A DNA stretch of 64,000 nt from Cytophagales bacterium. Its GTDB lineage: Bacteria > Bacteroidota > Bacteroidia > Cytophagales > Cyclobacteriaceae. The DNA lies in contig JAWXBL010000005.1 of assembly GCA_034440075.1 (NCBI GenBank), positions 34,678 to 98,677 of the forward strand, given 5' to 3'. The notes below the pieces were generated by a model. That model saw nothing but the letters and a program-made list of their open reading frames with translations, was not told the DNA's origin and ran no database searches. Of this stretch, positions 24,290-41,619 are shown piece after piece; the first letter of the stretch is position 1, and the number at the start of each line of letters is the position of its first letter. The translations under genes were made by a program, and so were the position numbers.

Positions 24290-24365
24290 GCACGTTTATA
24301 GAACCTCGTTGCTGTTGGTCGCCTGACCAACAACCCATCAATTCTCGTCCTCCATTCTCTTCTCA

Positions 24366-24635: not shown

Positions 24636-24886
24636 AGCCGTAACAATCCTAATGGATACTTCTTTTAAAAAATGGATAATATCTGTTCTTGGTGCCCTTG
24701 TAGTATTCTACATTAATAGTCAAATAGTAAGACCGAGAATCAACGTTTTATGGGACGATTTTGCAATTGGCCATTAGGGTATTTTCTACTTAAAGACATT
24801 TTTTTAATTCTGGAATAAGGTATTTTTAATACTGATGTGGGCATTTTTTAGTAAAGTATTGAGCCAACTTGCAAGAATTCTAATAA

Positions 24887-26068: not shown

Positions 26069-26074
26069 GAAGTA

Positions 26075-26992
26075 ATGAGTCGCCAGCATCCCATTCGCAT
26101 CGGCACCCGCGAGAGTGCTTTAGCCTTGTATCAGGCACAGGAAGTACAGCAAGCGTTAGATGCCAAGGGGTTAGCTACAGAAATTGTTGAGATTACTTCC
26201 GATGGTGATCTAGACTTACATACTCCGTTATACGAAATGGGTATTCAAGGAATCTTCACGAAGTCACTCGATAGTGCGCTACTTCAAAATAGTATTGACA
26301 TCGCAGTTCATTCCGCAAAAGACATTCCTACCAAACTGGCAATAGGTTTGACGATCAGCGCCATGCTGAAGCGCGGTACGATTGAGGATTGTTTGGTGTT
26401 GCCTGCAGCAAAAGGAGATTTCAATCCGGCTATGGCTATTAAAATAGCTTCCAGTAGTTTACGAAGAAGATCGCAGTGGTTGCATCGATATCCGCATCAT
26501 ACGATGGAGAATTTGCGAGGCAACATTCAAACTCGACTAAAAAAATTAGATGGCTCCGATTGGGGTGGTGCCATTTTCGCGCAGACAGCATTAGAGCGAT
26601 TACAAATTTCTTTGCAGCATGTCATCACGCTCGATTGGATGCTACCGGCACCGGCACAAGGAGCGATGGCGATTGTATGCAGAGCCGATGATCAGCCGAT
26701 GTTGGAGGTTTGTGCCACCATTCATCATCTCGAAACTGGAATTTGCGTGAATGCCGAGCGGGATTTTTTAGCTGCTCTTCATGGAGGATGCGCTGTGCCC
26801 ATTGCAGCCAGCGCTAACATTCAAAAAGATCAACTTTTATTTAGGGGAAATATATTTAGCCTGGATGGCAAACAAAAGTGTGAGTTGGAAAGAAGCTTTT
26901 CATTAGAGCAAGCTTCACATGCGGGCACGATGGCAGCAAAAGAAATTCTGTGCAATGGAGGCCAATCGATTCTCAAAACATTTAGAAGCTAA
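26075..26992 (+). CDS. hemC: Hydroxymethylbilane synthase
   Basis: IGTRESALAL, DIAVHSAKD, SSSLRR, RGNIQTRL and GGCAVPI. Confidence 0.96.
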   Translation: MSRQHPIRIGTRESALALYQAQEVQQALDAKGLATEIVEITSDGDLDLHTPLYEMGIQGIFTKSLDSALLQNSIDIAVHSAKDIPTKLAIGLTISAMLKRGTIEDCLVLPAAKGDFNPAMAIKIASSSLRRRSQWLHRYPHHTMENLRGNIQTRLKKLDGSDWGGAIFAQTALERLQISLQHVITLDWMLPAPAQGAMAIVCRADDQPMLEVCATIHHLETGICVNAERDFLAALHGGCAVPIAASANIQKDQLLFRGNIFSLDGKQKCELERSFSLEQASHAGTMAAKEILCNGGQSILKTFRS

Positions 26993-27690
26993 TGGAAGGG
27001 CAAACTCATCTGGTATCTACAAAAATACTGGCACCTGAATTAGTAGAGCAAGTCAAAAAAGCAGGCCTTTCCATTTCATTGCACAATTTTATTCAATCCA
27101 TTATTCGAATTCCAGCCCAGCTGGCAATGAATCAACTTCACAAACATATTGTGCTCACCAGTAAATCAGCCGTAAAGTCATGGTTGGCAATAGCCCAACA
27201 ACATAGTGTCCCTCTAACCGATCATCTTATTTTTTGTACCGATCAGGGCACCCGGCAAGAAGCTTTGGCGAACGATTTGACGATTGTGGGCACGGCTCGT
27301 GACGCCTCCACGTTGGCAGATGTTATTGAATCGAACGGCCAGATAAAGGCAGTAACATTTGTTTGTAGTAATGTTCGCAGAGATGATTTACCATCAAAAC
27401 TTACCGCGAAGGGGATTTCTGTAATTGAATTAATAGGCTACGATACAGAACCAACTCCCACAAAGATAAACGAACCTTACCACGGTGTTTTGTTTTTTAG
27501 CCCGAGTGGTGTTGATAGTTTTCTTTCATCAAATCAAATAGCTCCGGTATGCTTTTGCATTGGCACTACCACAGCAGTACATGCTGCACAAAAAGGATTT
27601 AGTGAAATTCAAATTGCTGAATTAGCAACTACTGAATCTATGATTAAAAAAGTTGTTTGTTATTATACAAAAGATGCCGTTTATGATTAA
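26992..27690 (+). CDS. hemD: Uroporphyrinogen-III synthase
   Basis: LTSKSAV, FFSPSGV and CIGTTTA; position in the operon. Confidence 0.88.
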
Positions 27691-28708
27691 AAACGATTTG
27701 CTTTTCAAAGCACTGCGAAAAGAAAAAGTAACGCGTCCACCCGTGTGGATGATGCGTCAGGCAGGTCGATATTTGCCGCAATATATTGAGCTTCGTAAGA
27801 AGTATGATTTTTTCACCCGTGTGCAAACACCCGAGCTGGCTTGTGAAATCACGCTGCAGCCGGTAAACATTATTGGTGTGGATGCGGCCATTATTTTTTC
27901 AGATATTCTGGTTATTCCACAGGCAATGGGTATGGAAGTATTGATGGAAGAAGGAAAAGGCCCATTATTACCAAAAGTGATTGCGTCTAAACGTGATATT
28001 GAGCAACTTAATATAGAGGTAGAAAGCGAGCTGCAATATATGTTTGATTCACTGGCCTTGACAAAAAAAGAATTGAATGGTCGGGTTCCTTTGATTGGTT
28101 TTGCAGGAGCACCCTTCACATTGCTTTGTTACATGGTGGAAGGTAAGGGTGTCAAAGGGTTTGAAAAAGCAAAAGCATTTTGTTTTACACAACCAGCATT
28201 GGCCCATCGCCTACTGAGCAAGATTACAGAAGCAACTATTGTTTATCTGAAAGCTCAACTTAGAGCCGGAGCCGATGTTGTTCAGGTGTTTGATAGCTGG
28301 AGTGGTATGCTAAGCCCGGATGATTTCGATCGGTTTGCCGGAAAATATTTACTCCAAATTGCGGAGGCGGTGGCTCCGCATGGCCCAGTCATTTTATTTC
28401 CAAAAGGAAGTGCCTATGCATTAGAATCTATTTCTAAAAATCAGTCTGTGTCGGCTGTTGGAATTGATTGGAACATACGACCAGAGAAGGCGAGGCAAGA
28501 ATCTGGCGGGCGGATGACACTGCAGGGAAATTTTGATCCCATCCGTTTGCTCATTCCAATTCCGGAATTGAAAAAAGAAGTTCATACTATGATTAAAGCT
28601 TTTGGTACCCAGGCTTACATCGCGAACCTGGGTCATGGTATTGTGCCACACATTCCGGTTGATCATGCCAAAGCATTTGTGGATGCCGTTAAAGAATATC
28701 AGGAATGA
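27683..28708 (+). CDS. hemE: Uroporphyrinogen decarboxylase
   Basis: [19 protein letters not shown] and NLGHG. Start moved to MIKND. Confidence 0.96.
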
Positions 28709-29622
28709 ACACGGTTATCCGCGATCAATTTGTAAAGCACATCAAGTCGTTACAGTCTGATATTTGTACTGCACTCGAAAATGTTGATGGCAAAGCAAAA
28801 TTCATTATGGATGAATGGGAAAGACCCGGTGGTGGAGGAGGAACAAGCCGTATGATTAGCAATGGAGCTGTTTTTGAAAAGGGAGGTGTTAATATTTCTA
28901 TTGTTCAGGGTATGCTACCACCATTAGTAGCCCAACAATTGAAAGTTGACGGCAGTTTATTTTTTGCTGCTGGTTTATCGTTAGTCATCCATCCCATCAA
29001 TCCTAAAGTGCCTACGGTGCATGCCAACTGGCGCTACTTCGAAGTGTATGATGACCAAGGCAATGTAAAGGATTCGTGGTTCGGTGGAGGAACGGATCTT
29101 ACTCCATATTATCTTGTAGAAGATGATGCCATACATTTTCATGCTGTTCAAAAGAAAAGCTGCGATGCGTTTGATGAGAAGCTATATTCTCAGTTCAAAC
29201 GCCAATGCGACAATTACTTTGTCAATCATCATCGTGACGGTGAGCGCAGAGGTGTGGGCGGGATTTTCTTTGACCACTGCCGTGGAAATGAAGAGCATTC
29301 GAGTGAATTCTGGAAAAAGTTTACACAGGAGAATGGCAAAATGTTTTTGGAGGGCTATTTACCAATTGTGAAAAGGCGGATGAATGATTCTTTCAGCGAA
29401 GAGAATAAATACTGGCAGGAGATCCGCAGAGGTCGTTATGTTGAATTCAATTTGCTACACGATCGCGGCACTTTATTTGGTATTAAAACAAATGGACGCA
29501 CGGAAAGCATTTTAATGAGTCTTCCTCCGACCGTAAGATTTGAGTATAACTATCAACCTCAAGCTGGAAGTAAAGAGGAGAAATTATTGAGTGTCCTTAA
29601 AAATCCAGTCAACTGGATATAA
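28705..29622 (+). CDS. hemF: Oxygen-dependent coproporphyrinogen III oxidase
   Basis: [33 protein letters not shown] and [10 protein letters not shown]. Confidence 0.96.
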
Positions 29623-29656
29623 TCAAACAATTATTAAATGTCACCCCACAACTAAA

Positions 29657-30628
29657 ATGAAGAGACGTAACCGAATATTGCGACAGAATGTGGCCATTAG
29701 AAGTATGGTGCAAGAAACGGTGTTGAAACCATCGGATTTTATTGTGCCAGTTTTTATCACGGAAGGTGAAAAAGTGAAAGATGAAATTTCATCGCTGTCC
29801 GGATATTACCGCTTTTCGATTGACATGGCGGTGGAGGAGTTAAAGGAATGTTGGGCATTAGGAATCAAGAGTGCTTTGATTTTTGTGAAAGTGCCTGATG
29901 AATTGAAAGACAACGCCGGTAAAGAAGCGCTGAATGATGATGGATTGATGCAACGGAGTGTCCGTGCGATAAAGAAAGCATTGCCAGAAATGATAGTGAT
30001 GACCGATGTTGCGCTTGATCCATTCTCAAGCTACGGCCATGATGGAATTGTGGAAGGTCACGAGATTGTCAATGACCGAACAGTGGAGATATTGGCTAAG
30101 ATGAGCATTAGCCATGCCAAGGCTGGTGCCGATTTTGTTGCACCGAGTGACATGATGGATGGCCGCATTGGTGCGATCCGTCAGGCATTGGAGCACGCTG
30201 GATTTCATAACACGGGAATCATGAGCTATGCGGCAAAGTATGCTTCGTCTTTTTATGGTCCCTTTCGCGATGCGTTGGGTAGCGCTCCAGGTTTTGGAGA
30301 TAAGAGTACATATCAAATGAATCCTGCGAACAGACTTGAAGCGATCAAAGAAGTGCTTATGGATGTGGAAGAAGGAGCTGACATTATAATGGTAAAACCA
30401 GCGCATGCCTATTTGGATATTATTCGTGAAGTAAAAAACGAAGTGCAGCTTCCCGTCAGTGCTTATCACGTGAGTGGTGAATACGCTATGATCAAAGCTG
30501 CAGCTAAGGCCGGTTATTTAAATGAAGATCGGGCAATTATCGAAGTGCTTACAGGAATCAAAAGAGCCGGTGCCGATTTGATTGCGACATATTTTGCCAA
30601 GCAAGCAACTAAATTAATTACGAAGTAA
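29657..30628 (+). CDS. hemB: Porphobilinogen synthase
   Basis: DVALDPFSSYGHDG, APSDMMDGR and MVKPA. Start moved to MKRRNR. Confidence 0.96.
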   Translation: MKRRNRILRQNVAIRSMVQETVLKPSDFIVPVFITEGEKVKDEISSLSGYYRFSIDMAVEELKECWALGIKSALIFVKVPDELKDNAGKEALNDDGLMQRSVRAIKKALPEMIVMTDVALDPFSSYGHDGIVEGHEIVNDRTVEILAKMSISHAKAGADFVAPSDMMDGRIGAIRQALEHAGFHNTGIMSYAAKYASSFYGPFRDALGSAPGFGDKSTYQMNPANRLEAIKEVLMDVEEGADIIMVKPAHAYLDIIREVKNEVQLPVSAYHVSGEYAMIKAAAKAGYLNEDRAIIEVLTGIKRAGADLIATYFAKQATKLITK

Positions 30629-31909
30629 ATGAGCTATTCCATTACCAAAAGCAAATCTCTTTTCGATCGCGCCCAACAACACATCCCCGGTGGCGTTAAT
30701 TCTCCTGTGCGTGCGTTTAAAAGTGTGGGTGGCACACCGTTGTTCATACAGAAAGCAAAAGGCGCTTATCTCTATGATGAAGATGGAAACCAATACATTG
30801 ACTACATCAACTCCTGGGGTCCGATGATTTTAGGTCATGCCTATCAACCTGTGGTAGATGCTATCATTGCAAAAGCGGCTGACTCTACTTCGTTCGGGGC
30901 ACCAACAGAATTGGAAATTGACATGGCGGAGCTCATCAAGCAGATGGCACCCGCTATTGATTTGGTTCGCATGGTGAACAGCGGAACCGAAGCATGCATG
31001 AGTGCCGTGCGATTGGCACGAGGGTATACCGGAAGAAATAAGATTATCAAGTTTGAGGGTTGTTACCACGGACATGCCGATGCTTTTTTAGTTAAAGCAG
31101 GAAGTGGGGTAGCAACATTAAATATTCAGTCTGTTCCTGGTGTGCAAGCACACGTAGCCGAAGATACCCTGACGGCACCCTATAATGACATGGATTCGGT
31201 CATGAATCTGATTTCGCAGCATCCCAACGAAATTGCCGCTATTATCATTGAGCCAGTGGCCGGAAACATGGGTTGTATCTTACCAGCGGAAGGATACTTA
31301 AAATCACTTCGTGAAGTATGTACACAACAGGGTATCATTTTGATTTTTGACGAAGTTATGACCGGTTTCCGCTTAGCGCGCGGTGGAGCGCAGGAAGTAT
31401 TTGGTATCGAGGCAGACCTTGTCACCTTCGGAAAAATAATTGGAGGTGGTTTACCCGTAGGTGCTTTTGGTGGAAAGAAGGCCATCATGGAAAAAATTGC
31501 ACCCCTTGGTGCTGTTTATCAGGCAGGAACGTTGAGCGGCAATCCCATTGCCATGACCGCTGGCTATACATTGCTAAAGCAATTGAATGATAATCCTTCC
31601 ATCTATGCTAAACTGGACGCTAAAGCAAAATTGCTTTGTGAAGGTATTCATCAGGCGTTGGAAAAGAAGGGAATAGATCATCGCATCAATCAACTCGGCA
31701 GCATGATGAGTGTGCATTTTTGTTCACACGAGGTGAAACATTTTGAGGATGCGAAAGCGTGTGATAATAGTCTCTTCAACAAATTCTTTCATCACATGTT
31801 AACTAAAGGCATATACCTTCCACCATCAGCTTTTGAAAGCTGGTTTATATGTACAGCATTGTCAGATTCCGATATTCAAAAAACGGTGGACGCGGTATTG
31901 GAATTTTGA
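30629..31909 (+). CDS. hemL: Glutamate-1-semialdehyde 2,1-aminomutase
   Basis: [26 protein letters not shown] and GKIIGGG. Confidence 0.97.
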
Positions 31910-31942
31910 TTGTCATTAAGAAAACTTAAACCGCAAAACAAC

Positions 31943-32977
31943 ATGGCAACAACAGCCGTATTATTGGCAAATCTTGGCTCGCCAGATTCTTATCAGGTTA
32001 AAGATTTGAGAAAGTATTTGAACGAATTTTTGATGGATGAACGCGTAATTGACATCCCTTATTTTTTTCGCGCTTTGTTAGTGAAGGGAATCATCGTTCC
32101 ATTTCGTTCTCCTAAAAGTGCTCATAAATATAAAACTGTTTGGACAGAGAATGGCTCGCCACTCATTCACATTTCAAAACAAGTACAAAAAGCGTTAAAT
32201 CAGAAAATCGATCTTCCTGTAGAGTTAAGCATGCGCTATGGTAATCCTACCCCGGATGTCGCATTCGAAAATCTTTTGAAACAAAATCCTGACTTGAAGG
32301 AAGTCGTGCTAGTTCCGCTATATCCGCATTATGCCATGAGCAGTTATGAGACAGCAATGGTGCAGGTACAAAGCGTTCATGATAAAATGAGGTATTCTTT
32401 TTCATTGCGAGTAGTGCCTCCCTTTTACAATCATTCAAAGTATATTCAAGCGCTGGCCAATAGCATCAAACCGTATCTGGAAAAGCCATTCGATCGATTG
32501 CTATTCAGCTACCATGGTATTCCCGAACGGCATGTACGAAAATCTGATCCTACCAAAGTGCATTGTTTGATGAAGGAAAACTGCTGTACGGTAGCGTCAG
32601 AGGCTCATAGCACTTGCTATCGTCATCAGGTGCTGACGACCACAGAATTGGTTGCCAAGGCGTTGGGCTCACCTCCTGATAAATTTAGTTCTTCATTTCA
32701 ATCGCGCCTCGGTGCAGATGCATGGTTGAAACCTAATAGTGCTGATCACTTTATGCAATTCCCGAAGCAGGGAATCAAGAAATTAGTAGTAGCATGCCCT
32801 GCTTTTGTGAGCGACTGCCTGGAAACATTGGAGGAGATTCAAATGGAAGGCAAGGAAACCTTTATGGAAAATGGTGGAGATGAATATACGGTCATTCCTT
32901 GTTTAAATCAACGAAGTGAATGGATTGAAACACTCGCAGAATTAGTAAGGGAAAATATCAGCAAACCCCAAGCTTAG
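31943..32977 (+). CDS. hemH: Ferrochelatase
   Basis: NLGSP, MRYGNP, LYPHYA, FSYHGIP and DCLETLEE. Confidence 0.95.
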   Translation: MATTAVLLANLGSPDSYQVKDLRKYLNEFLMDERVIDIPYFFRALLVKGIIVPFRSPKSAHKYKTVWTENGSPLIHISKQVQKALNQKIDLPVELSMRYGNPTPDVAFENLLKQNPDLKEVVLVPLYPHYAMSSYETAMVQVQSVHDKMRYSFSLRVVPPFYNHSKYIQALANSIKPYLEKPFDRLLFSYHGIPERHVRKSDPTKVHCLMKENCCTVASEAHSTCYRHQVLTTTELVAKALGSPPDKFSSSFQSRLGADAWLKPNSADHFMQFPKQGIKKLVVACPAFVSDCLETLEEIQMEGKETFMENGGDEYTVIPCLNQRSEWIETLAELVRENISKPQA

Positions 32978-32988
32978 ATTACCTAGCT

Positions 32989-33519
32989 ATGTATTTATAT
33001 GTAAAAGCACTGCACATCATTTTTGTTGTCACCTGGTTTGCAGGACTTTTCTACATGGTGCGTCTCTTTATTTATAATCGCGAAGCCCAAGATAAACCAG
33101 AGAAGGAAAGAATAATCCTTCAGCAACAATTTTCGGTTATGATAATGCGATTGTGGTTTGGTATCACCTGGCCATCGTGCATCCTAACAATTATTTTCGG
33201 AATTTGGATGCTGATTCTTTATGGTAGCATACCTACGTGGTTGTGGATCAAAATTGGCTTTGTTGCCGGTTTGGTGGCCTACCACTTTTCCCTACACATT
33301 ATCTATCTGCAACATTCCAATCAAGTCTTTCGATATTCCTCCACTCAACTGCGCATTTGGAATGAGGTGGCCACCGTCTTTTTGTTTGCCATTGTCATGC
33401 TGGTGGTAGTGAAAGATGCCCTTAGTCTGGTGTGGTCTATTGGCGGGTTAGTGTCGTTTGCCGTGGTGCTATTGATCGTCGTCCAGTGGTATAAAAAAAT
33501 CACAAAGGGGTATAAATAA
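32989..33519 (+). CDS. hemJ: Protoporphyrinogen oxidase HemJ
   Basis: KALHIIFVVTWFAGLFYMVRLF and RIWNEVAT. Confidence 0.92.
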   Translation: MYLYVKALHIIFVVTWFAGLFYMVRLFIYNREAQDKPEKERIILQQQFSVMIMRLWFGITWPSCILTIIFGIWMLILYGSIPTWLWIKIGFVAGLVAYHFSLHIIYLQHSNQVFRYSSTQLRIWNEVATVFLFAIVMLVVVKDALSLVWSIGGLVSFAVVLLIVVQWYKKITKGYK

Positions 33520-33526
33520 GTTATTC

Positions 33527-33549
33527 TTATTTAGAATAAGTCTAAACAA
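33527..33549. promoter_or_regulatory. Putative Fur-type operator upstream of the TonB receptor
   Basis: Palindrome TTATTTAGA-ATAAG-TCTAAACAA (8/9). A weaker second copy lies near 33567-33589. Confidence 0.55.
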
Positions 33550-33554
33550 GGCTT

Positions 33555-33562
33555 TACATTTG
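33555..33562 (+). promoter_or_regulatory. Bacteroidota -7 promoter element
   Basis: TACATTTG matches TAnnTTTG. Confidence 0.6.
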
Positions 33563-33592
33563 AGCCTTGTTTAAATTAATTCTAATAATTTT

Positions 33593-35857
33593 ATCATCCG
33601 TACCCGACATATCCCCCTTTTTCTTGCTTTAATGGGCTCAAGCATTGTTTTGAAAGCTCAGTCAACTTTTACAACAAATGGCACCGAAACCGATACGGTA
33701 GTCACCAAGGTACTTTCCGAAATCACTATTGTTGGCCGTGGTAGCAAGTCCGACATCCATCAACTTCCTCAAATTGTGGGTACAAATATTTATGCTACTA
33801 AGAAAAGTGCATTAATTATGATGGACAACGTGCGCGGTAATGTTGTCAGCAACACCATGCGTCAAGTAATGGCAAAAGTTCCGGGCATTTTTGTATGGGA
33901 AAGTGAAGGCAGCGGAATTCAGATTGGAATTGCCGCACGGGGGTTAAGTCCGAATCGATCCTGGGAATTTAATGTTAGGCAAAATGGATATGACATTGCA
34001 GCTGATCCTTACGGCTATCCCGAAGCCTATTACAATCCTCAACTCCAATCTGTGCAGCGAATAGAAATTGTGCGCGGTCACGGAGCATTGCAATACGGCC
34101 CTCAGATTGGGGGGATGGTGAATTATATTTTAAAAAATGGCAGTGAGTTTTCGAAGCCATTTCAATTCGAAATATTTCAGACGGGTGGCAGCAATGGACT
34201 TTTTAATTCATATAATGCCGTAGGTGGTAAGACGAAGAACATGAATTACTATGCCTTCTTTGACCATCGCAGTGGCGATGGATGGCGTGATAATAATTCA
34301 TTTCGCAGCAACTCTGCATCAGCCACGTTAACCTATAAAATTTCCGATCGACTAGTCCTCACAACAGAAGTTACCCGCTGGGAAACCGTGAGCCAGCAGC
34401 CCGGAGGATTAACCGATGTACAATTCGAGCAAGATGCCAGGCAAAGTTTCCGCAGTCGCAACTGGTTTAATTTAACGTGGTTGACCTCCGCAATGACGGC
34501 TGCTTATACCATCAGTGATCAGCAGCGATTGAATGTAAAAGTGTTTGGCATTCGTGCCGATCGCAATAGCGTTGGCTTCAATCCTGCCGGTGGCATTTTA
34601 GTGTTGGATAATGTGAATGCGGCTGGTGAGTATAATTTCCGCACGGTGGATGTTGATCAGTATCGTAATTATGGAATGGAGGCGCGCTATTTATTGAGTT
34701 ATCCGTTGGGTAATCAGCGGAGTAATCTGAGTGCAGGGGTGCGATTGTATCGTGGTAATACCGACCGCTTCCGCGGAGGTGTTGGCTCGCGTGATACAGA
34801 ATACTCTATTGTTCGCGAAGCAGGAACCACCTGGACAGGAGACATTGATTATAAAAGTGGTAATGCTGCGGTGTTTGCAGAAAACCTTTTTCAAGTGACC
34901 GACAAGTTGATGATCGTTCCCGGAGTGCGGTATGAATATTTAACCGCAGAGGCCGGTGGATATAGCAGCATTGTGAATGGCAACCCGGTTTATTTACAGA
35001 ATCAATCGCGCAGCAGAAGCTTTATGATTGGAGGTTTGGGTTTAGAATATGCGCTCACAAGTTCTACTTCGCTCTATGCGAATGCTACTCAATCCTATCG
35101 CCCGGTTCAATTTGCAGACCTCACCACTCCACCTACTACCGATGTGATCGATCCGAATCTTACCGATGCCAAAGGCGTGAATGTGGATGTTGGATATCGC
35201 GGCAGCGTGAAAGATTTTTTAAAATTTGATGTCAGTGGCTTCTTGTTGGATTATAGCAGTCGTGTGGGCACTATCCGTCAGCAGCGGCAAGACGGATCAT
35301 TTTATAATCTCCGCACCAATGTAGGCAGCAGTCGCTCACAAGGAGTAGAGCTTTTTATTGAGTATAATCTTTCGAAGTCAATATTAATGGATAAACGATT
35401 TGGAGAACTGGAGCTTTTTACTTCGTATGCTTATAACGATGCGCGTTATAATAATTTGAAAGTAGTTACGGTGGTGAACAATGCCTTGCAAGAGACTAAC
35501 TACAAGGATAAGAAAGTGGAGTACGCACCGGAGAATATTTTCCGGGCGGGGGTAACCTATTCGTTAAAGAATTTTTCAGCTACGCTTCAACAGAGTTATA
35601 CCGATGAAGTATATGCCGATGCCAACAATACCACATCTGCCACCGTCAACGGCCAAAATGGATTGATACCCTCTTATAAGATCTATGATTTCACGTTAGG
35701 ATATAAAACTAAAAAGGGATTTAGTCTGAAGGCAGGCATTAATAATCTTTCGGATGAAAAATATTTTACGCGAAGAGCGGGTGGCTATCCTGGCCCAGGT
35801 ATTCTTCCGGGTGATGGAAGAACACTCTTCCTGACGGTGGGTTATATTCTCCCATAA
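33593..35857 (+). CDS. TonB-dependent receptor (FecA-like iron uptake)
   Basis: Plug motifs (VPGIFV, RGLSP, IEIVRGHGALQYGP), C-terminal NLSDEKY and a terminal aromatic strand. First ATG is at 33632, but the signal peptide extends upstream to ATC 33593. Confidence 0.88.
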   Translation: MIRTRHIPLFLALMGSSIVLKAQSTFTTNGTETDTVVTKVLSEITIVGRGSKSDIHQLPQIVGTNIYATKKSALIMMDNVRGNVVSNTMRQVMAKVPGIFVWESEGSGIQIGIAARGLSPNRSWEFNVRQNGYDIAADPYGYPEAYYNPQLQSVQRIEIVRGHGALQYGPQIGGMVNYILKNGSEFSKPFQFEIFQTGGSNGLFNSYNAVGGKTKNMNYYAFFDHRSGDGWRDNNSFRSNSASATLTYKISDRLVLTTEVTRWETVSQQPGGLTDVQFEQDARQSFRSRNWFNLTWLTSAMTAAYTISDQQRLNVKVFGIRADRNSVGFNPAGGILVLDNVNAAGEYNFRTVDVDQYRNYGMEARYLLSYPLGNQRSNLSAGVRLYRGNTDRFRGGVGSRDTEYSIVREAGTTWTGDIDYKSGNAAVFAENLFQVTDKLMIVPGVRYEYLTAEAGGYSSIVNGNPVYLQNQSRSRSFMIGGLGLEYALTSSTSLYANATQSYRPVQFADLTTPPTTDVIDPNLTDAKGVNVDVGYRGSVKDFLKFDVSGFLLDYSSRVGTIRQQRQDGSFYNLRTNVGSSRSQGVELFIEYNLSKSILMDKRFGELELFTSYAYNDARYNNLKVVTVVNNALQETNYKDKKVEYAPENIFRAGVTYSLKNFSATLQQSYTDEVYADANNTTSATVNGQNGLIPSYKIYDFTLGYKTKKGFSLKAGINNLSDEKYFTRRAGGYPGPGILPGDGRTLFLTVGYILP

Positions 35858-35879
35858 GGCAAAAAAAGGCCAGCTCATT

Positions 35880-35969
35880 TCAGAGTCGGCCGGCTTTCAA
35901 CTTATTCATAATCCTCTTTCCGGTCTTGGCTTCAATCTGCTTTCTCGCATTTCCCGCAATCGTTCCGTC
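35880..35969 (-). pseudogene. C-terminal fragment resembling BRO-family proteins
   Basis: GTIAGNARKQIEAKTGK resembles the C-terminal motif I recall from Bro-N domain proteins. The upstream sequence is unrelated. Confidence 0.4.
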
Positions 35970-36151
35970 AAGGCAGGGTGGGATTTGGCTCTTGCCATAG
36001 CTTTCGTGTTGCGGTGGGTTTGCGCGGCAATGGCATGTGGCAAAAGCGAGGGCGAGACATGCATGTGTGGCCAGGCAATGTGTGTGCGCCTTAGGTGCTG
36101 TCATTTCACAAGGTCTTACAACAATTTCGGTCTCTTATAAGAAACTTATTT

Positions 36152-36860
36152 CTAAGTTCAAGTAATAAGTGCAACGCAAAAGGTTAAAGGAAAGGAGGTT
36201 TCCCCCCTTTCAATTGACCAAGGTTTTGAAAACTTTGTGTTGCTTATGACGACAAACTATTCTCACCTTAGCCAAGAGCAAAGGTATCAAATTGAAGCCT
36301 TATTAAGGACAGGTAAGACCCAAGTTCAAATAGCTTCTTTAGTAGGCTGCCACAAGTCAACGGTGAGTCGAGAGTTGAGACGAAATGTTCCTCAACGGGG
36401 AATAGGAGCAAAGGAATACAAAGCTGTTAAGGCTCAATTAAAGACCTAGCTACGCCATCACCTCAAGGCCAAACATGAAAGGTTCACCCAGGATATGCGG
36501 AAGCAAATTGTTGAGTGGCTTACCGTGGAGAAGCTCAGTCCTGAGTTGATCTCTGTATTGGGGCGAGCACAAGACAATGATTTTGTCAGTCATGAAACCA
36601 TTTACACCTGGATATGGAGTATGAAGCATTCCCATCGAAAAGAAAATCGACCTTTTCAAGACCTGTATCAAGAACTCAGGCATGGAAGAAGACGCAGAAA
36701 ACGAGGCAATCGTCGCGATAATAGGGGTTGTATCCCCAACCGAATCTCTATTGAGAACCGACCGGCACTCGTTGAAAAGCGAGACCGTTTGGGGGACGTT
36801 GAAGTAAATTTAATGCTGGGTAAAAACCACCAGCCAGGATTACTGGTCATTATCGAGCCT
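36152..36860 (+). mobile_element. Decayed IS30-family element (left IR plus truncated transposase)
   Basis: HTH YSHLSQEQRYQIEAL...HKSTVSRELRRN, in-frame TAG at 36447-36449, VSHETIYTWI and ISIENRP. The first DDE Asp position reads N (GDVEVNL) and similarity ends near 36860. Candidate IR ctaagttcaagtaataagtgcaac at 36152-36175. Confidence 0.88.
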
Positions 36861-36871
36861 GTGCTATTAAA

Positions 36872-37708
36872 CTATTTCTTTGGGCTCCATTTCCCCATTA
36901 AGAATTCGGTCGAATGTTTTAAAAAGTCTGAATAGTTATTAGGGTCTAAATGTGGAACATGTCCGCCATTTGGAAAAATCCAGAGTCTGCTATTCGGTAT
37001 ATATTTTTTCATTTCTATTGCTTGGTCTAATGGAATAAAGTCATTGTCCCCCTGAACGATAAGCCACTGTGCTTTAATTGAATTCAACATGTCAGGCGAA
37101 AATGAAGGATCACCGTAGAAATTTCTAAAACGCCAAAACTGTCTTGCCTGTAACATCGCTTTCTCTTGGCCATGAATTTTAGATTGCTTGGATATGATAT
37201 CAGTCTTGGCACTGTCAGGTCCGTCTGAAGTAATCCAATCTCTCACCCGTTGGTCATAATAGATTTGCGCTCCAATTGTTATTACATTTTTAAATTTGTC
37301 AGGTTGCATGAAATTGGCGTAGAAAAGCGTAATTCCTCCGGAACTTGCCCCCATTGCATTCACTTGATTAATTTTTAAATAGTCCAGTAACGCAAGAATT
37401 ATTTTCGCATAGTCACTGTGTCTAAATTCCACGTCTCCCTTTTTATAGATGTCTGAACGTCCGTGGCCAATCATGTCAACGGAGATTACTCTAAATATTT
37501 TTGAGTAATCCTCAAAGTATGCTTTCCATTGGTCAGCTGTCCCATTGAATGTATGTAAAAGTAAGAGAGGCTCTCCTTGTCCAATGTCCTCATAATATAT
37601 TTTTGTTCCATTGTAATTAAAAAACTTTCCGGTTGAGGAAATTGGCAATTGTCCATTTGACCCAAAATAAATTAGGTAGAGTAGGACGAAGGTTATTATT
37701 TTTTTCAT
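36872..37708 (-). CDS. Secreted alpha/beta hydrolase; cassette-like
   Basis: LLLLHTF, DMIGHGRS, GASSGG, QGDND and GGHVPH; AT-rich. Confidence 0.85.
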   Translation of the reverse strand: MKKIITFVLLYLIYFGSNGQLPISSTGKFFNYNGTKIYYEDIGQGEPLLLLHTFNGTADQWKAYFEDYSKIFRVISVDMIGHGRSDIYKKGDVEFRHSDYAKIILALLDYLKINQVNAMGASSGGITLFYANFMQPDKFKNVITIGAQIYYDQRVRDWITSDGPDSAKTDIISKQSKIHGQEKAMLQARQFWRFRNFYGDPSFSPDMLNSIKAQWLIVQGDNDFIPLDQAIEMKKYIPNSRLWIFPNGGHVPHLDPNNYSDFLKHSTEFLMGKWSPKK

Positions 37709-37736
37709 ATCATTTAGGTTGGTTGTCGGTGGCATT

Positions 37737-37745
37737 GGCGCTAAC
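37737..37745 (-). repeat. Isolated R'-like core site (GTTAGCGCC) at the cassette start
   Basis: ggcgctaac on the + strand, 29 nt upstream of the ATG. Confidence 0.55.
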
Positions 37746-37886
37746 AAGCATTTCGACCTGACTCGTGATCCTTGATTGCCTTGACAATCTGGGTCTCTAT
37801 GAATTTTGTCTTTCTCATTGTTTATCCATTTAAAGTTGATAAATTTATTCCAACTATTAAATGGCCGAACTTCAGGGGAGCTTACA
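37746..37886 (-). mobile_element. IS3-family remnant (terminal IR plus OrfA N-terminus)
   Basis: Minus strand TGTAAGCTCCCCTGAAGTTCGGCC, then ATG at 37818 encoding MRKTKFIETQIVKAIKDHESGRN, cut at the GTT core site. Confidence 0.7.
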
Positions 37887-37903
37887 GCAGCTTCTTCACT
37901 CTT

Positions 37904-38290
37904 TTAACCCCTTGCTGAGCCGTCCGACTGCATGGCACAAACAAGATTACCTTCCGTATCCAAAAACTTTGTGATCCAGCCAACATATGGGATTGCAGTC
38001 TTCGGCATAAGTATTTGGCCGCCGTTGTTTTGGACTTTCTTAATTATGTCGTCAACGCTTTCAACTGTCACGGTGCATTCTAATCCTATTAACCTTTCTT
38101 TCACTGGAGAGTATGTCCTTGCTTGTAAAGCGCCGATTAGCTCTCCGTTTTCGGTTTGGTCAGCCTTTATTTGTAAAAAGTCAGTTGGTCCGTAGGATGT
38201 AAAGCCCCAATCAAATACTTGTCCGTAAAACTTCTTTGCCCTTTCAATATTGTCAATGTGAATTGCAAAGTGGGTCATTTTATTTTTCAT
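37904..38290 (-). CDS. VOC/glyoxalase family protein; cassette-like
   Basis: HFAIHIDNIERAKKFYGQVFDW, GGQILMPKTAIPYVG and DTEGN. Confidence 0.9.
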   Translation of the reverse strand: MKNKMTHFAIHIDNIERAKKFYGQVFDWGFTSYGPTDFLQIKADQTENGELIGALQARTYSPVKERLIGLECTVTVESVDDIIKKVQNNGGQILMPKTAIPYVGWITKFLDTEGNLVCAMQSDGSARG

Positions 38291-38344
38291 ATTGTCAGTT
38301 TTATTATTCAGACCGAAGCTGTCCGACGGTTTTGGCCACATTAC

Positions 38345-38514
38345 CCCCAACGTCGGTATAAATGTCCGTGGTGGGGGGAGAGGGAGGGCTTTCTAAATCT
38401 GCCAGCTGGCAAGACCGACTACTCTGCAAGTTCCACGAACAATTTCCGCAACCGAAGATAACTATTTATTTTGAGTGCGATCCCCACCATGATCCATAAT
38501 ACGTTGTTGTGTGC
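38345..38514 (-). repeat. attC-like long repeat, copy 2 (170 bp)
   Basis: ccccaac...gttgtgtgc, internal ggtgggg/ccccacc stem and the shared core. Confidence 0.82.
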
Positions 38515-38606
38515 TGTTGGCTTGTTGTTCAAAATACTAACCACCTTATCATGTAAAGGCTTGATTTTTAATTGCTAAGTGCTAGTTTTCCCTGTGGAAT
38601 TATACC

Positions 38607-39227
38607 TTAAGAATAACTTTCACTTGCATCAGCACGATCCATAAAGGTTAGGTCAATGCTAACCACGGCTGATACGAGTAACCAGAGAGTCGCTAAATCA
38701 GTATTCATGTCAACTGTTGTTGTCAGGAGATAGATCGAGCGCAAGGAGCCACTTCTAGTGACAATCTCTTTCTGTTTCTTTCTAGTCTCCTCTGAATCTC
38801 TAAGTACCTTTGCAAACACCTTATCAGCTTCATTCTTGAATTTGTAGTTAAATGTTCCCGACTCAATGATTATTTTTAAGATTAGTTTGTCATTGTCAGT
38901 CTTGAGATTGTATTTGTCTCCATCCACTCCAAGTAAATTTCTATGTAGAATACCTATGACATTGGCGTTTGCGTCCATAATATTTGTTCTAGATGCAAAC
39001 CAGGTAAATCCCTTACGGATTGTAAACAACTTAGTCCCAGCTTTTGAGATAAAGTCAAAAGAAAAGGAAGTTCCAGAAATATCTAAAAATCTGAATATCT
39101 TTTGACTAATCGTTGAGTTTTTTTCAACAGCGGTCATTATCACATCGTTTGAATCTCCATCCAGAATCTCAAACTCTCTATGAAATTTAAGCAAGTTTAA
39201 TTTTCTCGTAATTACATATGACCCCAT
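38607..39227 (-). CDS. LURP-one/scramblase-like protein; cassette-like
   Basis: LKFHREFEILD, LFTIRKGFTWFASR and LLVSAVVSID resemble the tubby C-like LURP1 fold. Confidence 0.6.
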   Translation of the reverse strand: MGSYVITRKLNLLKFHREFEILDGDSNDVIMTAVEKNSTISQKIFRFLDISGTSFSFDFISKAGTKLFTIRKGFTWFASRTNIMDANANVIGILHRNLLGVDGDKYNLKTDNDKLILKIIIESGTFNYKFKNEADKVFAKVLRDSEETRKKQKEIVTRSGSLRSIYLLTTTVDMNTDLATLWLLVSAVVSIDLTFMDRADASESYS

Positions 39228-39322
39228 ATTGTGTATCCGTTACAAATGAGTGATTTTCGAAAACTGTACAGTGCACATTGATGCTGTTCACTAGTTGATC
39301 AGGTCAATTAAAATCTCACTGG

Positions 39323-39331
39323 GCACTCAAC
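39323..39331 (-). repeat. Isolated R'-like core site (GTTGAGTGC)
   Basis: gcactcaac on +, 7 nt from the P460 stop. 8/9 match to the cassette's own end site GCACACAAC (38506-38514, minus strand). Confidence 0.5.
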
Positions 39332-39338
39332 CGGGTCT

Positions 39339-39845
39339 TCAGTGCAGATCAAACGTGCGCACCAGGTCGCGGTTGGGGGAGGTGCTGTGGCAGCTCACGC
39401 ATCCCGAGCCCTTCGACTTGACCGAAACCACCACCCCGCCGGATGGATTGTATTCTGCCCAAAGCCAGCCGCTCCCCGCATTGGAATTTGCCGGGTCTTT
39501 TTTCATGACCGCATACAGCGTAATCCCCGATCCGCCTTGTATGTCTTTTACCAGGACGGACCCCGTGGGGAACGAATTTCCGGGTGGAAGTTCACCCGTG
39601 CCGTCAAGCACAGCCGCTGCCGTGGCATTGAAACGAAGTTTGAAATTACCATGAGGACCCATGCCCGTCAGCGTGTTGCCGCCCTGGTAAAACGTGTAGC
39701 CCGACGCCGTCGTTTCTGCAAACAGCGCGGCATCCGGATCCGGCGCGGACGACATGCTGGTCTCCCTGGAACATGAGTAGATCAGAATGACCAGCGCGCC
39801 GATGGCGCTCAGCCTGCCTATTTCTCTTGCCGCATCGATCTTCAT
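39339..39845 (-). CDS. Cytochrome P460 family lipoprotein
   Basis: Lipobox (IYSC), FPTGSVLVKD, AVMKK, GWLWAEY and the C-terminal heme motif CVSCH. Confidence 0.8.
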   Translation of the reverse strand: MKIDAAREIGRLSAIGALVILIYSCSRETSMSSAPDPDAALFAETTASGYTFYQGGNTLTGMGPHGNFKLRFNATAAAVLDGTGELPPGNSFPTGSVLVKDIQGGSGITLYAVMKKDPANSNAGSGWLWAEYNPSGGVVVSVKSKGSGCVSCHSTSPNRDLVRTFDLH

Positions 39846-40018
39846 AAGAAACGTTTACTCAATGATAATCAAAAAATGCCAATGCAGCAGCAAGGCACGA
39901 CAACATCAACTTCAATCAGTGTTGGTTGTTGTGGTTCATTAGTCAACGAGTCCAGCATTTTTGGCCGTCTCTTTGAACTCAACTCCTAATTTGTCCAACT
40001 CTTCGGAGTCGAGGCATT

Positions 40019-40195
40019 GCGCACAACGTCAGTGTATTTGTCCGAAGTGGGAAGTAGGAGGGCTTGCTAAATCCGCCAGTTGGCGGATGGCAAGGCCGAC
40101 TACTCTGCAAGTTCCACGAACTTGGTTGCATTACGAAGATAACTATTTACTTCAACTGTGAATCCCCAGCATGGCATATACACTTTGTTGTGTGC
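40019..40195 (-). repeat. attC-like long repeat, copy 3 (177 bp)
   Basis: gcgcacaac-gtca-gtgtat ... atacac-ttt-gttgtgtgc; the HepT stop codon is 7 nt away. Confidence 0.88.
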
Positions 40196-40202
40196 AGTGC
40201 CC

Positions 40203-40535
40203 TTAGCTGAGTAGAGATTTAATCTCTTTTTCGAGGTCAGGTAAATTTTTGATTATTATCCCCCAAAGAATATCCGCTGACACTGAGTCATAGCCGTGTA
40301 TGATCCTGTTTCTTGTGTCAACTATTTTTCTTGTGTGGCTAATCTTTATTTTAGGATCAATTGCCAAAATGCGACTCATTGCCTCTCCAATGATTTCTAC
40401 ATTGCGTTCAACAGCTCTACGAGTTTTCAGATCCTTTTGAAATTCTTTGAAGTCCTTGATTTCAGGAATGAATGATTTTATTTCAGCAATGGCTTGATCA
40501 ATGTCCTTAAGCCAGGTCTTGATATTATTGTCCAT
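40203..40535 (-). CDS. HepT-like HEPN RNase toxin (DUF86)
   Basis: AVERNVEIIGEA and RNRIIHGYD (RxxxxH plus Tyr). Confidence 0.92.
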   Translation of the reverse strand: MDNNIKTWLKDIDQAIAEIKSFIPEIKDFKEFQKDLKTRRAVERNVEIIGEAMSRILAIDPKIKISHTRKIVDTRNRIIHGYDSVSADILWGIIIKNLPDLEKEIKSLLS

Positions 40536-40827
40536 AGATTAGGACTTTTGACTTGTCTATACTCTGCCTGAGGAAGGGATTTTTGATTGCCCTATTCTCC
40601 AGGAGGTCAATAGATCGGTCCAATATCTTTTCAAGTGCAAATTTGAGCTGGAAATAATTATCAGAGTACTCAAAAGGGTCGCTTGTTTGAAAATCAACCA
40701 TCAGGTCCACGTCACTAGTCTTTGTAAATTGTGTCGTATTAACCGAGCCAAAAGAGTAGAGACTCTTTACCTTGTGATTCTCGCAAAGCCTTAGAATTTG
40801 CTCTTTATAAGTTTCAATTATTCCCAT
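40525..40827 (-). CDS. MntA-like minimal nucleotidyltransferase antitoxin
   Basis: FGSVNTTQFTKTSDVDL (GSx10DxD); overlaps the toxin start. Confidence 0.92.
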   Translation of the reverse strand: MGIIETYKEQILRLCENHKVKSLYSFGSVNTTQFTKTSDVDLMVDFQTSDPFEYSDNYFQLKFALEKILDRSIDLLENRAIKNPFLRQSIDKSKVLIYGQ

Positions 40828-40871
40828 GATGCAAATTTAGCTAATTTTTACTCTAATCTTTGCCGGGCATT

Positions 40872-40959
40872 GCACACAACGTTTGTGTATAAGGCGTTTG
40901 CCTTACCAAAATAGAAATAAACAAAGGAAGGCAAATGACTTATACACTTTGTTGTGCGC
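40872..40959 (-). repeat. attC-like site (88 bp hairpin)
   Basis: gcacacaac / gttgtgcgc ends, with perfect inner pairs gtgtataag/cttatacac and tttgcctt/aaggcaaa. Confidence 0.88.
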
Positions 40960-40973
40960 TGGTTGATTAGTCC

Positions 40974-41462
40974 TCACTTTTTAGTCAGTTGTTTTAAAAT
41001 TCTTTTTGTCAAGTCGTCAGTCAATGGAGAAATCGCATCTTCTTCCTTGTCAACTGATATGTTTAAAGTCGTGTCAATTCTTTTGTCCGTCTTTGGCTCA
41101 ATTTGCTGAAATGTCACTCGATTACAAAGCGGTATTTTTGCACCAAGGGTTTCTAGTTTGACGTATGCGGGCGTTAATAATGACAATTTTATCTTTAAGG
41201 TTTTCTTATCGCTACTGGTTGACGTAATGTCCGTTACAACACACTCAAGGCCATTTGAATTGAGTTGACCAGATAATTGAGAGGCAATTTTGTCAAGAAA
41301 CTCTTTTCCTTCTTTTGATTTAACTGTGTCAATAGTCAAAATGATTTTGTCAGCCTGGATACTGAAATGTTTCCACGGTTTATAATAATAGTATTTCTGT
41401 CCGAAAGAATTGATGGAGAGTCCAAATAGTAAAACTGTAATTAATATTCTTGTCACTCTCAT
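40974..41462 (-). CDS. Secreted hypothetical protein; cassette-like
   Basis: Signal peptide MRVTRILITVLLFGLSINSFGQ; AT-rich; bounded by att-like sites. Confidence 0.7.
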   Translation of the reverse strand: MRVTRILITVLLFGLSINSFGQKYYYYKPWKHFSIQADKIILTIDTVKSKEGKEFLDKIASQLSGQLNSNGLECVVTDITSTSSDKKTLKIKLSLLTPAYVKLETLGAKIPLCNRVTFQQIEPKTDKRIDTTLNISVDKEEDAISPLTDDLTKRILKQLTKK

Positions 41463-41491
41463 TGTCTTGTGTTGTCTCGTCTTATCAACTT

Positions 41492-41500
41492 GCGCACAAC
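41492..41500 (-). repeat. R'-like core site (GTTGTGCGC) marking the first cassette start
   Basis: gcgcacaac on +. A weak partner cttgtgcgg at 41571-41579 gives the same 88-bp span as the previous site. Confidence 0.65.
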
Positions 41501-41619
41501 AACCGTGCATACGCTAAATTGCGTCTACACATCTGCAGCAGACGAATATACGGAATTGCATATATAGGCTCTTGTGCGGATGTTGCCTCCACGGCACCAT
41601 TCCGCGCCGCGCAAAGGAC

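Follow-up and report, generated by a model that had tools for sequence, protein, structure and literature searches.

The long repeats of this region are most probably recombination sites that close mobile gene cassettes at the 3' end, within an integron-like system of gene capture that occurs widely in Bacteroidota and is served by a Xer-like recombinase. The case for cassette recombination is entirely comparative, and it is carried by the anatomy of the sites, the covariation of their paired bases, the unequal stability of their two strands, a signature at the cassette ends and the adjacency of a recombinase to the arrays.

Long and short sites in the host genome

In the window, that is, the whole stretch of 64,000 nt that was analysed, three long copies carry a common core that is missing from an 88-nt site whose outer arms they match, just as the initial annotation had described. 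Their length is indeed unusual, as it exceeds that of any canonical attC site (57-141 bp, PMC5371416). The sites, and the interior elements of the best-preserved example, are as follows.

22729-22889, + strand, long site copy 1 (161 nt), degenerate
38344-38515, + strand, long site copy 2 (172 nt), 145 bits; AAC 38349-38351, GTT 38506-38508
40020-40196, + strand (the folding, "bottom-like" strand), long site copy 3 (177 nt), 187 bits with the covariance model
40025-40027 and 40187-40189, + strand, core triplets AAC and GTT of copy 3
40060-40097, + strand, hairpin A in copy 3 (gggcttgc...gcaaggcc, with a palindromic tip); compensatory changes in 7/9 pairs
40108-40124, + strand, stem B in copy 3 (caagttc-cac-gaacttg), confined to the host-genome subfamily and unconserved elsewhere
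40134-40149, + strand, conserved interior core of copy 3, cgaagataactattta
40873-40960, + strand, 88-nt site, arms of the same R/L type around a short interior, 57.6 bits

Copy 2 has a shortened hairpin A and a broken stem B, and copy 1 has suffered an 11-nt deletion in its left arm and has lost the right-hand GTT. The count does not stop at the three copies first named; the host genome (G000) holds five more, one complete and four truncated or fragmentary.

C39:3367-3545, complete extra copy (179 nt)
C11:1095-1262, truncated extra copy
C11:380-522, truncated extra copy
C39:6648-6790, truncated extra copy
C45:107979-108043, core fragment of the long repeat

Relatives of the long site, 121 and 127 nt in length, are also found in this genome, and arms bounded by AAC...GTT are common to its sites of 88, 121, 127 and 161-179 nt. 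All eight long copies, as well as the short sites, lie directly 3' of a gene and in a single relative orientation. Five of the eight, copy 1 among them, are degenerate or truncated, and the system in the host genome may therefore be in decay.

Covariation supports an outer stem and one added hairpin

Copy 3 folds with an energy of -36.4 kcal/mol (z = -5.3), and none of 200 shuffles does equally well. Among 27 long and 8 mixed sites the left-hand AAC(G) is invariant and the right-hand (T)GTT nearly so; the RRRY of GTTRRRY is not kept, the sites typically reading GTTGTG. In the long-class consensus the L stem is a continuous 9 bp with zero bulged bases, and the sole irregularities of the consensus stem are a 1x1 mismatch and the spacer between the R and L boxes, an asymmetric internal loop of 3x2 nt versus about 5-6 nt in attC. 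Covariation backs a 23-bp outer stem and an inner hairpin in this class: 92.6% of cells are paired, compared with 39-48% once the partners are slid, and double changes occur in 22 of the 32 pairs of the structure, values that 0/500 shuffles reached. Two near-invariant G.T wobbles of the long class are confined to the folding strand, and the folding strand is the more stable one in 73 of 105 sites (mean -1.5 kcal/mol, p = 8e-8).

The ~180-nt class equals the ~140-nt class plus one inserted conserved hairpin, hairpin A, the stem of which holds a fixed position in sites of nine genomes (eight genera); its tips differ among genomes. Of the nested stems read earlier from the sequence, the outer arms, ggtgggg/ccccacc and cttgc...gcaag are upheld by covariation across genera, whereas gcaagttc-cac-gaacttgc (stem B) is unconserved, being broken in copy 2 and in the complete copy on C39 and having no counterpart in other genomes. 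RNAalifold, applied to the site interior, finds no conserved structure except hairpin A. The interior is thus enlarged and partly structured, as the initial annotation proposed, but the full multibranch fold that it drew is lineage-specific and unsupported past the one added hairpin. On the coding strand the interior core reads TATCTTCG, which fits TAnnTTTG with one mismatch. A tRNA-like reading of the three-armed core was rejected, as ARAGORN calls none of the complete copies.

The site family extends across the bacterial family

A BLAST search of copy 3 against 150 genomes of the family returns only a 34-nt palindrome match, and an exact-pattern scan for the core in about 185,000 species genomes returns no match, so that by sequence search the site family appeared genome-specific. 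A covariance model of the arms overturned this, placing the family in 42 of 150 Cyclobacteriaceae genomes and in 37 of 132 genera; two other scans, one with a fuzzy arm motif and one on AAC...GTT duplex energy, gave too much noise in GC-rich DNA. The sites often line up on one strand, 10 to more than 40 to an array, and their sizes cluster around ~140 and ~180 nt, the long class measuring about 173-195 nt. Since at least 14 further genomes of the family have the ~180-nt class, the term "host-specific" applied to these repeats at the outset has to be given up: the exact sequence is confined to the host genome, yet it is a local variant of that class.

A signature at the cassette ends

The genes and half-sites that accompany the sites in the window are the following.

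22961-24241, - strand, 426-aa ORF, its stop about 70 nt upstream of copy 1
37904-38290, - strand, glyoxalase/bleomycin-resistance-like protein, cargo downstream of copy 2
38607-39227, - strand, 206-aa ORF, cargo upstream of copy 2
39321-39331, half-site gggcactcAAC near the 206-aa cassette
39339-39845, - strand, GC-rich cytochrome P460-like gene, flanked by copy 3 and the 206-aa cassette and lacking its own site
40203-40827, - strand, HepT-like RNase (40203-40535) and MNT nucleotidyltransferase (40525-40827), cargo between the 88-nt site and copy 3
40974-41510, - strand, 178-aa ORF, cargo, ending 14 nt before the 88-nt site
41490-41500, + strand, left-arm-like half-site (ttgcgcacAAC) heading the window's small array

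The window cassettes have a GC content of 36-42% against 50% for the genome. The cargo sampled from the system is heterogeneous, comprising a toxin-antitoxin pair, a glyoxalase, a sulfotransferase, HTH proteins and DUFs. A site begins 3-15 nt past the end of its ORF, and the next ORF follows about 10-55 nt beyond the site (mostly 13-25 nt). The flanks outside AAC/GTT are complementary to the other end of their own cassette (0.62-0.73) and not to the other flank of the same site (0.27-0.54, which equals background); inside the site the relation reverses. Because the outer flanks match the cassette's other end rather than the same site, the comparison argues that cassettes are cut and rejoined at the AAC/GTT core, the mobile unit being the gene together with its site.

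A Xer-like recombinase heads the arrays

At 13 loci a Xer-like tyrosine recombinase, co-oriented with the cassettes, stands at the array head. It heads the array in G024, G055, G107, G000-C12, G080 and G050, and in seven named Bacteroidota genomes 15 of 15 matches fall on the predicted side and strand. The array-head recombinases have conserved catalytic residues, lack the insertion specific to IntI and carry an extra N-terminal domain, for which a fold search gives nothing significant, its best, weak matches being YciH and the DNA-recognition domains of XPB and MutS (all E >= 0.05). In the host genome the recombinase is found on contig C12 with an attI-like junction, in which two AATGCGTATAT repeats stand ahead of GTT, and a first cassette whose ends match at 14 of 15 positions; this one cassette precedes the contig end. 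No recombinase is found beside the half-site at 41490-41500 or beside any of the window's clusters.

Site-positive genomes show no enrichment of the recombinase family, with sites in 8 of 28 close-homologue genomes and in 41 of 149 overall, and the array-rich genomes G036, G057, G064 and G146, several of them fragmented assemblies, have no close homologue at E <= 1e-50. The excessive breadth of the enzyme family makes co-occurrence per genome uninformative, and the case rests on physical adjacency.

Xer enzymes act on short duplex dif targets and have no N-terminal extension, and the insertion of IntI4 reads extrahelical bases; the recombinase described here has neither the IntI4 insertion nor the short dif-like target of Xer. 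Its core-binding and catalytic domains are about equally near archaeal XerA (PDB 5hxy) and Vibrio IntI4 (PDB 2a3v), with 128 and 126 bits by sequence, respectively, and about equal by fold.

Are the sites attC sites, selfish palindromes or RNA elements?

A question arises, could the repeats be a canonical, genome-specific attC family comparable to the Vibrio VCRs, worked by a true IntI, with the clusters being CALINs that outlasted their integrase? We hold this to be very improbable, and the membership suggested by the initial annotation is not sustained. To our knowledge, Bacteroidota are regarded as nearly integron-free. IntegronFinder surveys find essentially zero arrays in Bacteroidetes, and true IntI genes above the curated cut-off occur in 3 of 151 genomes of the family. 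attC hairpins are read via their extrahelical bases by an insertion unique to IntI, whereas the consensus structure here has zero extrahelical bases and only the short 3x2 spacer. The host genome is 100% complete and has no TIGR02249 match over the cut-off, hence no IntI. At the IntI loci of G120 and G038, the two covered by the array inspection (the partial IntI of G128 was left out), no arrays adjoin the gene; arrays begin instead beside the Xer-like enzyme at the 13 loci.

What speaks for attC is a general likeness that includes the AAC...GTT ends, the cassette layout, the stability of the bottom strand and the hybrid end signature. Like attC sites and VCRs, the sites are imperfect AAC/GTT hairpins with a variable, possibly branched interior and a more stable bottom strand (PMC5371416). 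As in integrons, gene-plus-site cassettes form one-strand arrays, exchange their ends at the core and adjoin, beside the recombinase, a junction with two direct repeats (PMC5371416). On the other hand, the sites measure about 140-195 nt, running beyond 141 bp, with no extrahelical bases and a 3x2 spacer rather than one of 5-6 nt, and their interior is sequence-conserved across genera and often contains a promoter-like motif. Unlike IntI, the recombinase is without the insertion, carries the additional domain at its N-terminus and points the same way as the cassettes. The window clusters, with three sites at 38.3-41.0 kb and one isolated site at 22.7 kb, do resemble CALINs in having no adjoining recombinase and some degenerate sites, but CALINs are defined by IntegronFinder's attC model, and here a recombinase platform is present elsewhere in the host genome.

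Still more doubtful is that a small selfish palindromic element of the MITE/REP type invaded a short attC-like site, the added core being parasitic. The long class does equal the ~140-nt class plus an inserted hairpin, the hairpin tips do vary between genomes, and the tip palindrome of G000 and G047 is found in tRNA-cluster spacers and at contig ends as well, which could mean that it is a separate small element. However, it is only the tip that matches elsewhere in the genome, never the stem, and the stem sits at the same position in nine genomes (eight genera), 7 of its 9 pairs showing compensatory changes. The sites show no target-site duplication, the copies always lie behind a gene in one orientation, and their flanks co-vary with the gene's other end.

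Least probable of all is that the repeats are mainly a structured RNA, be it a 3' UTR element, a terminator or insulator, an antisense RNA or a promoter carrier for the next cassette. The conserved, covarying structure and its G.U-compatible wobbles would suit an RNA, TAnnTTTG is found on the coding strand of 35 of 106 sites versus 1 of 106 on the other strand, and the gap between site and next ORF leaves little room for a promoter; yet the wobble-bearing strand is antisense to the genes, a terminator-like tail is absent, the sites of G000 itself have the promoter motif only with one mismatch, and the cassette-end signature requires DNA exchange. The window has no match to an Rfam family at the gathering score, and at E <= 1 only a chance miRNA match (27.7 bits against a threshold of 111); attC sites are not among the families in Rfam. 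Both alternatives raised by the initial annotation, structured RNA and MITE, thus give way to a mobile unit of gene plus site, with no Rfam match and no terminator features. A site could nevertheless serve as a promoter as well as in recombination.

A model for cassette capture

According to the model that we favour, recombination at 3'-terminal cassette sites, each site is an imperfect hairpin of one DNA strand, the one complementary to the cassette coding strand, with a 5-bp AAC(G)/(T)GTT core stem, the 3x2 loop, the 9-bp L-type stem, a further 8-9-bp stem and a variable interior. The Xer-like recombinase from the array head would exchange strands at the AAC/GTT core, so that gene and site travel as one unit; that the exchange takes place on single strands, and that this enzyme carries it out, we infer from sequence comparison. 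In the host genome, C12 holds the platform (recombinase, attI-like junction and first cassette) and the window holds recombinase-less cassette clusters. The added hairpin may, as a guess, stabilise the folded form, or dock the recombinase or a host factor.

We would lean only slightly against a wider reading, in which these elements form a second lineage of folded-ssDNA cassette capture, parallel to integrons, that needs neither extrahelical bases nor an IntI-specific domain. The new N-terminal domain may then read the AATGCGTATAT repeats or the added hairpin, the sites may carry promoters of their own, and the same mechanism would explain how rAID-1 arrays are built in gut Bacteroidales. Long sequence-conserved hairpins without extrahelical bases, paired with a recombinase without the IntI insertion, would contrast with the integron rule. 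If the sites carry promoters, expression of cassettes deep inside long arrays becomes possible. In Bacteroidota of the environment and the gut, a large reservoir of mobile accessory genes is probably overlooked by the integron finders now in use.

Relation to rAID-1 arrays

The closest published relatives come from gut Bacteroidales and are the rAID-1 arrays, named for recombinase-associated acquired interbacterial defence (Ross et al., bioRxiv 10.1101/471110; PMC12247911). They have been described only in Bacteroidales, as orphan-immunity arrays, and are defined by a tyrosine recombinase, XerD-like and located 5', that is at least 44% identical to B. fragilis BF9343_RS08045; their repeats were addressed by motif enrichment analysis only, and their biogenesis is stated to be unknown (bioRxiv 10.1101/471110; PMC12247911). 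The arrays in G024, G055, G107 and G000-C12 share the layout with a Xer-like recombinase at the head, and those of G024, G055 and G107 also have two or more co-directional low-GC downstream genes and repetitive intergenic sequences. They differ in that they reside in other Bacteroidota, the cargo sampled is heterogeneous and the sites are folded hairpins with a mapped exchange core. With the site anatomy made explicit, the exchange core mapped and an attI-like junction described, the assembly of rAID arrays becomes directly testable. Among named relatives, those nearest to the recombinase come mostly from Flavobacteriaceae, Cryomorphaceae and Cyclobacteriaceae, with some from Bacteroidales MAGs, whose homologues share 43-53% identity with it.

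Long repeats in the window and in the genome

We propose, on the strength of sequence and predicted fold, that the long repeats of the window are genuine and structured, and serve as recombination sites in an integron-like cassette system resembling rAID-1, the recombinase-headed arrays of Bacteroidales. Their unusual length represents a family-wide class made by one conserved extra hairpin. The sequence coordinates agree with the initial annotation, which had described three long copies sharing a central core that is absent from the 88-nt site at 40873-40960. The outer arms of the three are those of the 88-nt site (gcacaacgt.gtgtat ... atacactttgttgtg). As single-stranded DNA, copy 3 has a folding energy of -36.4 kcal/mol (z = -5.3), a stability reached by no shuffle; copy 1 is degenerate, its left arm being short of 11 nt and its right-hand GTT gone. 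The genome-wide count that the initial annotation had suggested yields five additional long copies in this genome, G000 (3.46 Mb, 52 contigs, 50% GC): one complete, three truncated on one side and one core fragment. A structure-based scan together with a covariance model added two shorter sites and half a site, and the covariance-model search of G000 detected none besides those given here.

Sites in G000 (contig C numbers; the first three lines are window positions)
22729-22889, copy 1, 161 nt
38344-38515, copy 2, 172 nt
40020-40196, copy 3, 177 nt
C39:3367-3545, complete long copy, 179 nt
C11:1095-1262, long copy truncated on one side
C11:380-522, long copy truncated on one side
C39:6648-6790, long copy truncated on one side
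C45:107979-108043, core fragment of a long copy
C39:2325-2445, 121-nt site with both arms and the cgaagataa core in common with the long copies
C39:5970-6095, 127-nt site
Start of C12, half a site

A family-wide class of long sites

By BLAST and exact-pattern scanning alone, the repeat seemed restricted to G000. The sole BLAST match outside it, in a different genus (G047), is a site of ~170 nt. It combines 127-nt-type arms with the same inner hairpin, there perfectly paired over 19 bp, and follows an ORF at a distance of 15 nt. A covariance model specifying the arm pairs alone (alignment A2, model R1) was run on 150 sampled genomes of the bacterial family and detects the sites in 42 of them, belonging to 37 of 132 genera; the proposal of a host-specific family is therefore not borne out. 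Many of the matches are arranged as one-strand arrays.

Examples of one-strand arrays
G024, more than 40 sites, about 57 kb
G055, about 20 sites, 10 kb
G036, about 15 sites

Among 106 sites from the retrieved arrays, 9 measure 89-109 nt, 67 measure 120-149 nt and 30 measure 170-195 nt, and sites of at least 170 nt occur in at least 14 genomes apart from G000. Given these size classes and their spread, sites exceeding any canonical attC are common in the system, and within the long class the copies of G000 represent one local variation in sequence.

Folded structure of the sites

Alignment A4 comprises 27 long-class sites from nine genomes. Its consensus begins with a stem of 5 bp, AAC(G)/(T)GTT, followed by an internal loop of 3x2 nt and a stem of 9 bp; a 1x1 mismatch and a single pair then lead to a stem of 8 bp. 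Once hairpin A, the inner hairpin that marks the ~180-nt class off from the ~140-nt class, is added to this consensus by hand, 92.6% of cells are paired, versus 39-48% after shifting the partners by one to three columns, and none of 500 shuffles matches any observed pairing measure. Covariation, a check that the initial annotation had put forward, supports the fold: changes on both sides occur in 22 of 32 pairs, and hairpin A by itself has compensatory changes in seven of nine. Outside hairpin A the interior is conserved in sequence and not in structure, the long class being the ~140-nt backbone with hairpin A inserted. The multibranch fold proposed earlier retains one well-supported extra hairpin, A, and is otherwise reduced to lineage-specific pairings, because the gcaagttc-cac-gaacttgc hairpin occurs in only some members of the G000 subfamily and is broken in copy 2 and in C39a.

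Two G.T pairs are near-invariant (26/27 and 27/27 sites). Given that these become C.A mismatches on the opposite strand, the strand carrying them is the one that folds. It also has the greater folding stability in each of the seven complete G000 sites and, over the whole set, in 73 of 105 (mean -1.5 kcal/mol, p = 8e-8); for attC bottom strands a difference of like sign and size is reported (PMC5371416).

Hairpin A ends in a palindrome, ATCCGCCAGCTGGCGGAT, that is also found in G000 in the spacers of a tRNA-gene cluster, where several contigs break (C3:73-90, C31:159-176, C31:329-346, the ends of C33 and C49 and the start of C5). The hairpin tip in G055 is another palindrome, CCCGATAGCTATCGGG, similar to hairpins in the tandem repeats of G000 C31. 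Hairpin tips may be small independent palindromic units.

The -7 promoter consensus of Bacteroidota is TAnnTTTG. Of the 106 sites of alignment A3, 35 have this motif on the coding strand, pointing at the next cassette, versus 1 of 106 on the opposite strand (shuffles: mean 5, maximum 12). G000 sites carry a version with one mismatch, TATCTTCG, located in the window at 40134-40149. Sites may carry cassette promoters.

Cassette context and exchange signature

All long copies lie directly 3' of a gene, their window + strand form being the non-coding strand. The window genes concerned are small, have 36-42% GC versus 50% in the genome, and are of the kinds usually carried by cassettes: a HepT/MNT toxin-antitoxin pair, a glyoxalase/bleomycin-resistance-like protein, an alpha/beta hydrolase, and ORFs without a Pfam match. 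No Rfam family, a match to which would have spoken against the initial reading, was matched by the repeats, nor does any site resemble an intrinsic terminator. In G024, whose cargo is heterogeneous, ORFs end 3-15 nt ahead of a site and the next ORF begins about 10-55 nt (mostly 13-25 nt) beyond it.

In nine arrays, we compared the flank past the right core triplet, GTT, with the flank past the left one, AAC, of the same site, of the next site across the gene and of non-neighbours. Over six positions, complementarity to the neighbour, that is, to the cassette's own other end, is 0.62-0.73 per position, versus 0.27-0.54 within the same site, the level of the non-neighbour background. Between the triplets the order is reversed, with 0.73-0.74 for the same site versus 0.49-0.51 for the neighbour (informative positions). 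This pattern is the hybrid-site signature of integron cassettes, which locates strand exchange at the AAC/GTT core, and it indicates that the cassettes moved as units. Likewise, the end signature that a companion note had described for one window cassette, the MNT/HepT unit, was seen again on reading (15/16).

Other features of the window around the cassettes
21600-41500, low-GC stretch (38-47% vs 50% genome)
24887-35857, + strand, gene block within that stretch
36237-36935, + strand, transposase-like ORF fragments abutting the alpha/beta-hydrolase cassette
39321-39331, half-site gggcactcAAC, 7 nt past the stop of the cytochrome P460-like gene
39339-39845, cytochrome P460-like gene, GC-rich (54%), within the low-GC cassette cluster and without its own site

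The low-GC stretch may be a genomic island with cassette clusters embedded, and the transposase-like fragments are possibly a decayed insertion sequence at the cluster tail. The half-site looks as if a cassette had inserted beside a resident gene.

Recombinase and attI-like junction

The predicted head of the G024 array is occupied by a tyrosine recombinase of 378 aa that points the same way as the cassettes. The enzyme encoded in G000 at C12:740-1897 (386 aa) is 64% identical to it, and homologues of 41-46% identity stand at the heads of arrays in G107 (C7) and G055 (C20); in G080 and G050, judged by coordinates, two more recombinases lie 1-7 kb upstream of sites in the expected orientation. 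An enzyme-alignment scan of about 185,000 species genomes recovered Bacteroidota relatives, among them Winogradskyella, Algibacter, Polaribacter, Gilvibacter, Jejudonia and Cyclobacteriaceae. Searching 80 oriented recombinase loci with R1 gave 17 matches at E <= 1; 15, from seven Bacteroidota genomes, follow the recombinase and have the strand predicted for them, and the two exceptions are weak matches in a Calditrichales genome. In that MAG (L131), the matches at 749-889 and 5048-5185 lie upstream of a related recombinase and point away from it, the classical integron orientation. Presence of the enzyme family says little by itself: 99 of 150 genomes have a member, and site-positive genomes show no enrichment of close homologues.

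The recombinase keeps the catalytic residues and is about equally like archaeal XerA and Vibrio IntI4, by sequence and by fold. It lacks the insertions of the G120 IntI; integrons cannot function without the insertion of IntI (PMC8138268), and its absence from the present enzyme goes together with the absence of extrahelical bases from the sites. The Xer-like enzyme would recombine the sites on a folded single strand. Its N-terminal extension of ~110 residues has no Pfam match and is confidently modelled as a small beta-beta-alpha-beta-beta-alpha-beta domain. This domain (residues 10-76 of the C12 enzyme) has no significant structural neighbours; its weak top matches (all E >= 0.05), the XPB damage-recognition domain, the MutS mismatch-binding domain and SMARCAL1 HARP, are nucleic-acid-recognition modules.

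On C12 the order is recombinase, one cassette, then the half-site at the contig start. Beside the recombinase is an attI-like junction, with two repeats ahead of a GTT.

attI-like junction stretches
G000 C12:640-740 (locus L021)
L088:6870-6960

Related arrangements or motifs occur at Winogradskyella, Flavobacteriaceae S0862 and Polaribacter loci. On C12, the 15 nt past the junction GTT agree in all but one position (14 of 15) with the flank past the GTT of the half-site at the contig start, which is the end signature of the first cassette. G000 thus has the whole platform, split by assembly. The window clusters are without a recombinase, their head being only the half-site at 41490-41500.

A second Xer-like recombinase of G000 (C15:839-1921, L020; 361 aa, 43% identical to the C12 enzyme) lies at a contig start, with CACAACAA-type boxes downstream. 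The locus may be another platform, one that uses sites of its own type.

Relation to known systems

Canonical attC sites span 57-141 bp, with interiors from 3 nt up to the branched structures of VCRs. G000-type sites would work alike, but they have no extrahelical bases and no IntI, and their length is outside the range. Hence the earlier assignment to an attC family holds as to cassette recombination sites and fails as to canonical attC membership. The architecture is already published (rAID-1). A 2025 paper from the rAID field still treats the way rAID arrays arise as an open question and mentions neither hairpins nor attC, and the literature, as far as searched, holds no account of how the sites are built or of arrays of this kind beyond Bacteroidales. 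Relative to these publications, what appears new is the anatomy of the sites, their exchange core, the attI-like junction and the breadth of the distribution.

IntegronFinder surveys list for Bacteroidetes no more than In0 elements and a single complete integron, in Salinibacter. An integron integrase is absent from G000, whose best TIGR02249 matches are split and under the cut-off. Three of 151 family genomes have true IntI genes that pass the curated cut-off (G120 L032, G038 L033 and G128 L034, the last partial); the two loci inspected for arrays, those of G120 and G038, have none beside them and are In0-like. True IntI and the Xer-like system are both present within the same bacterial family.
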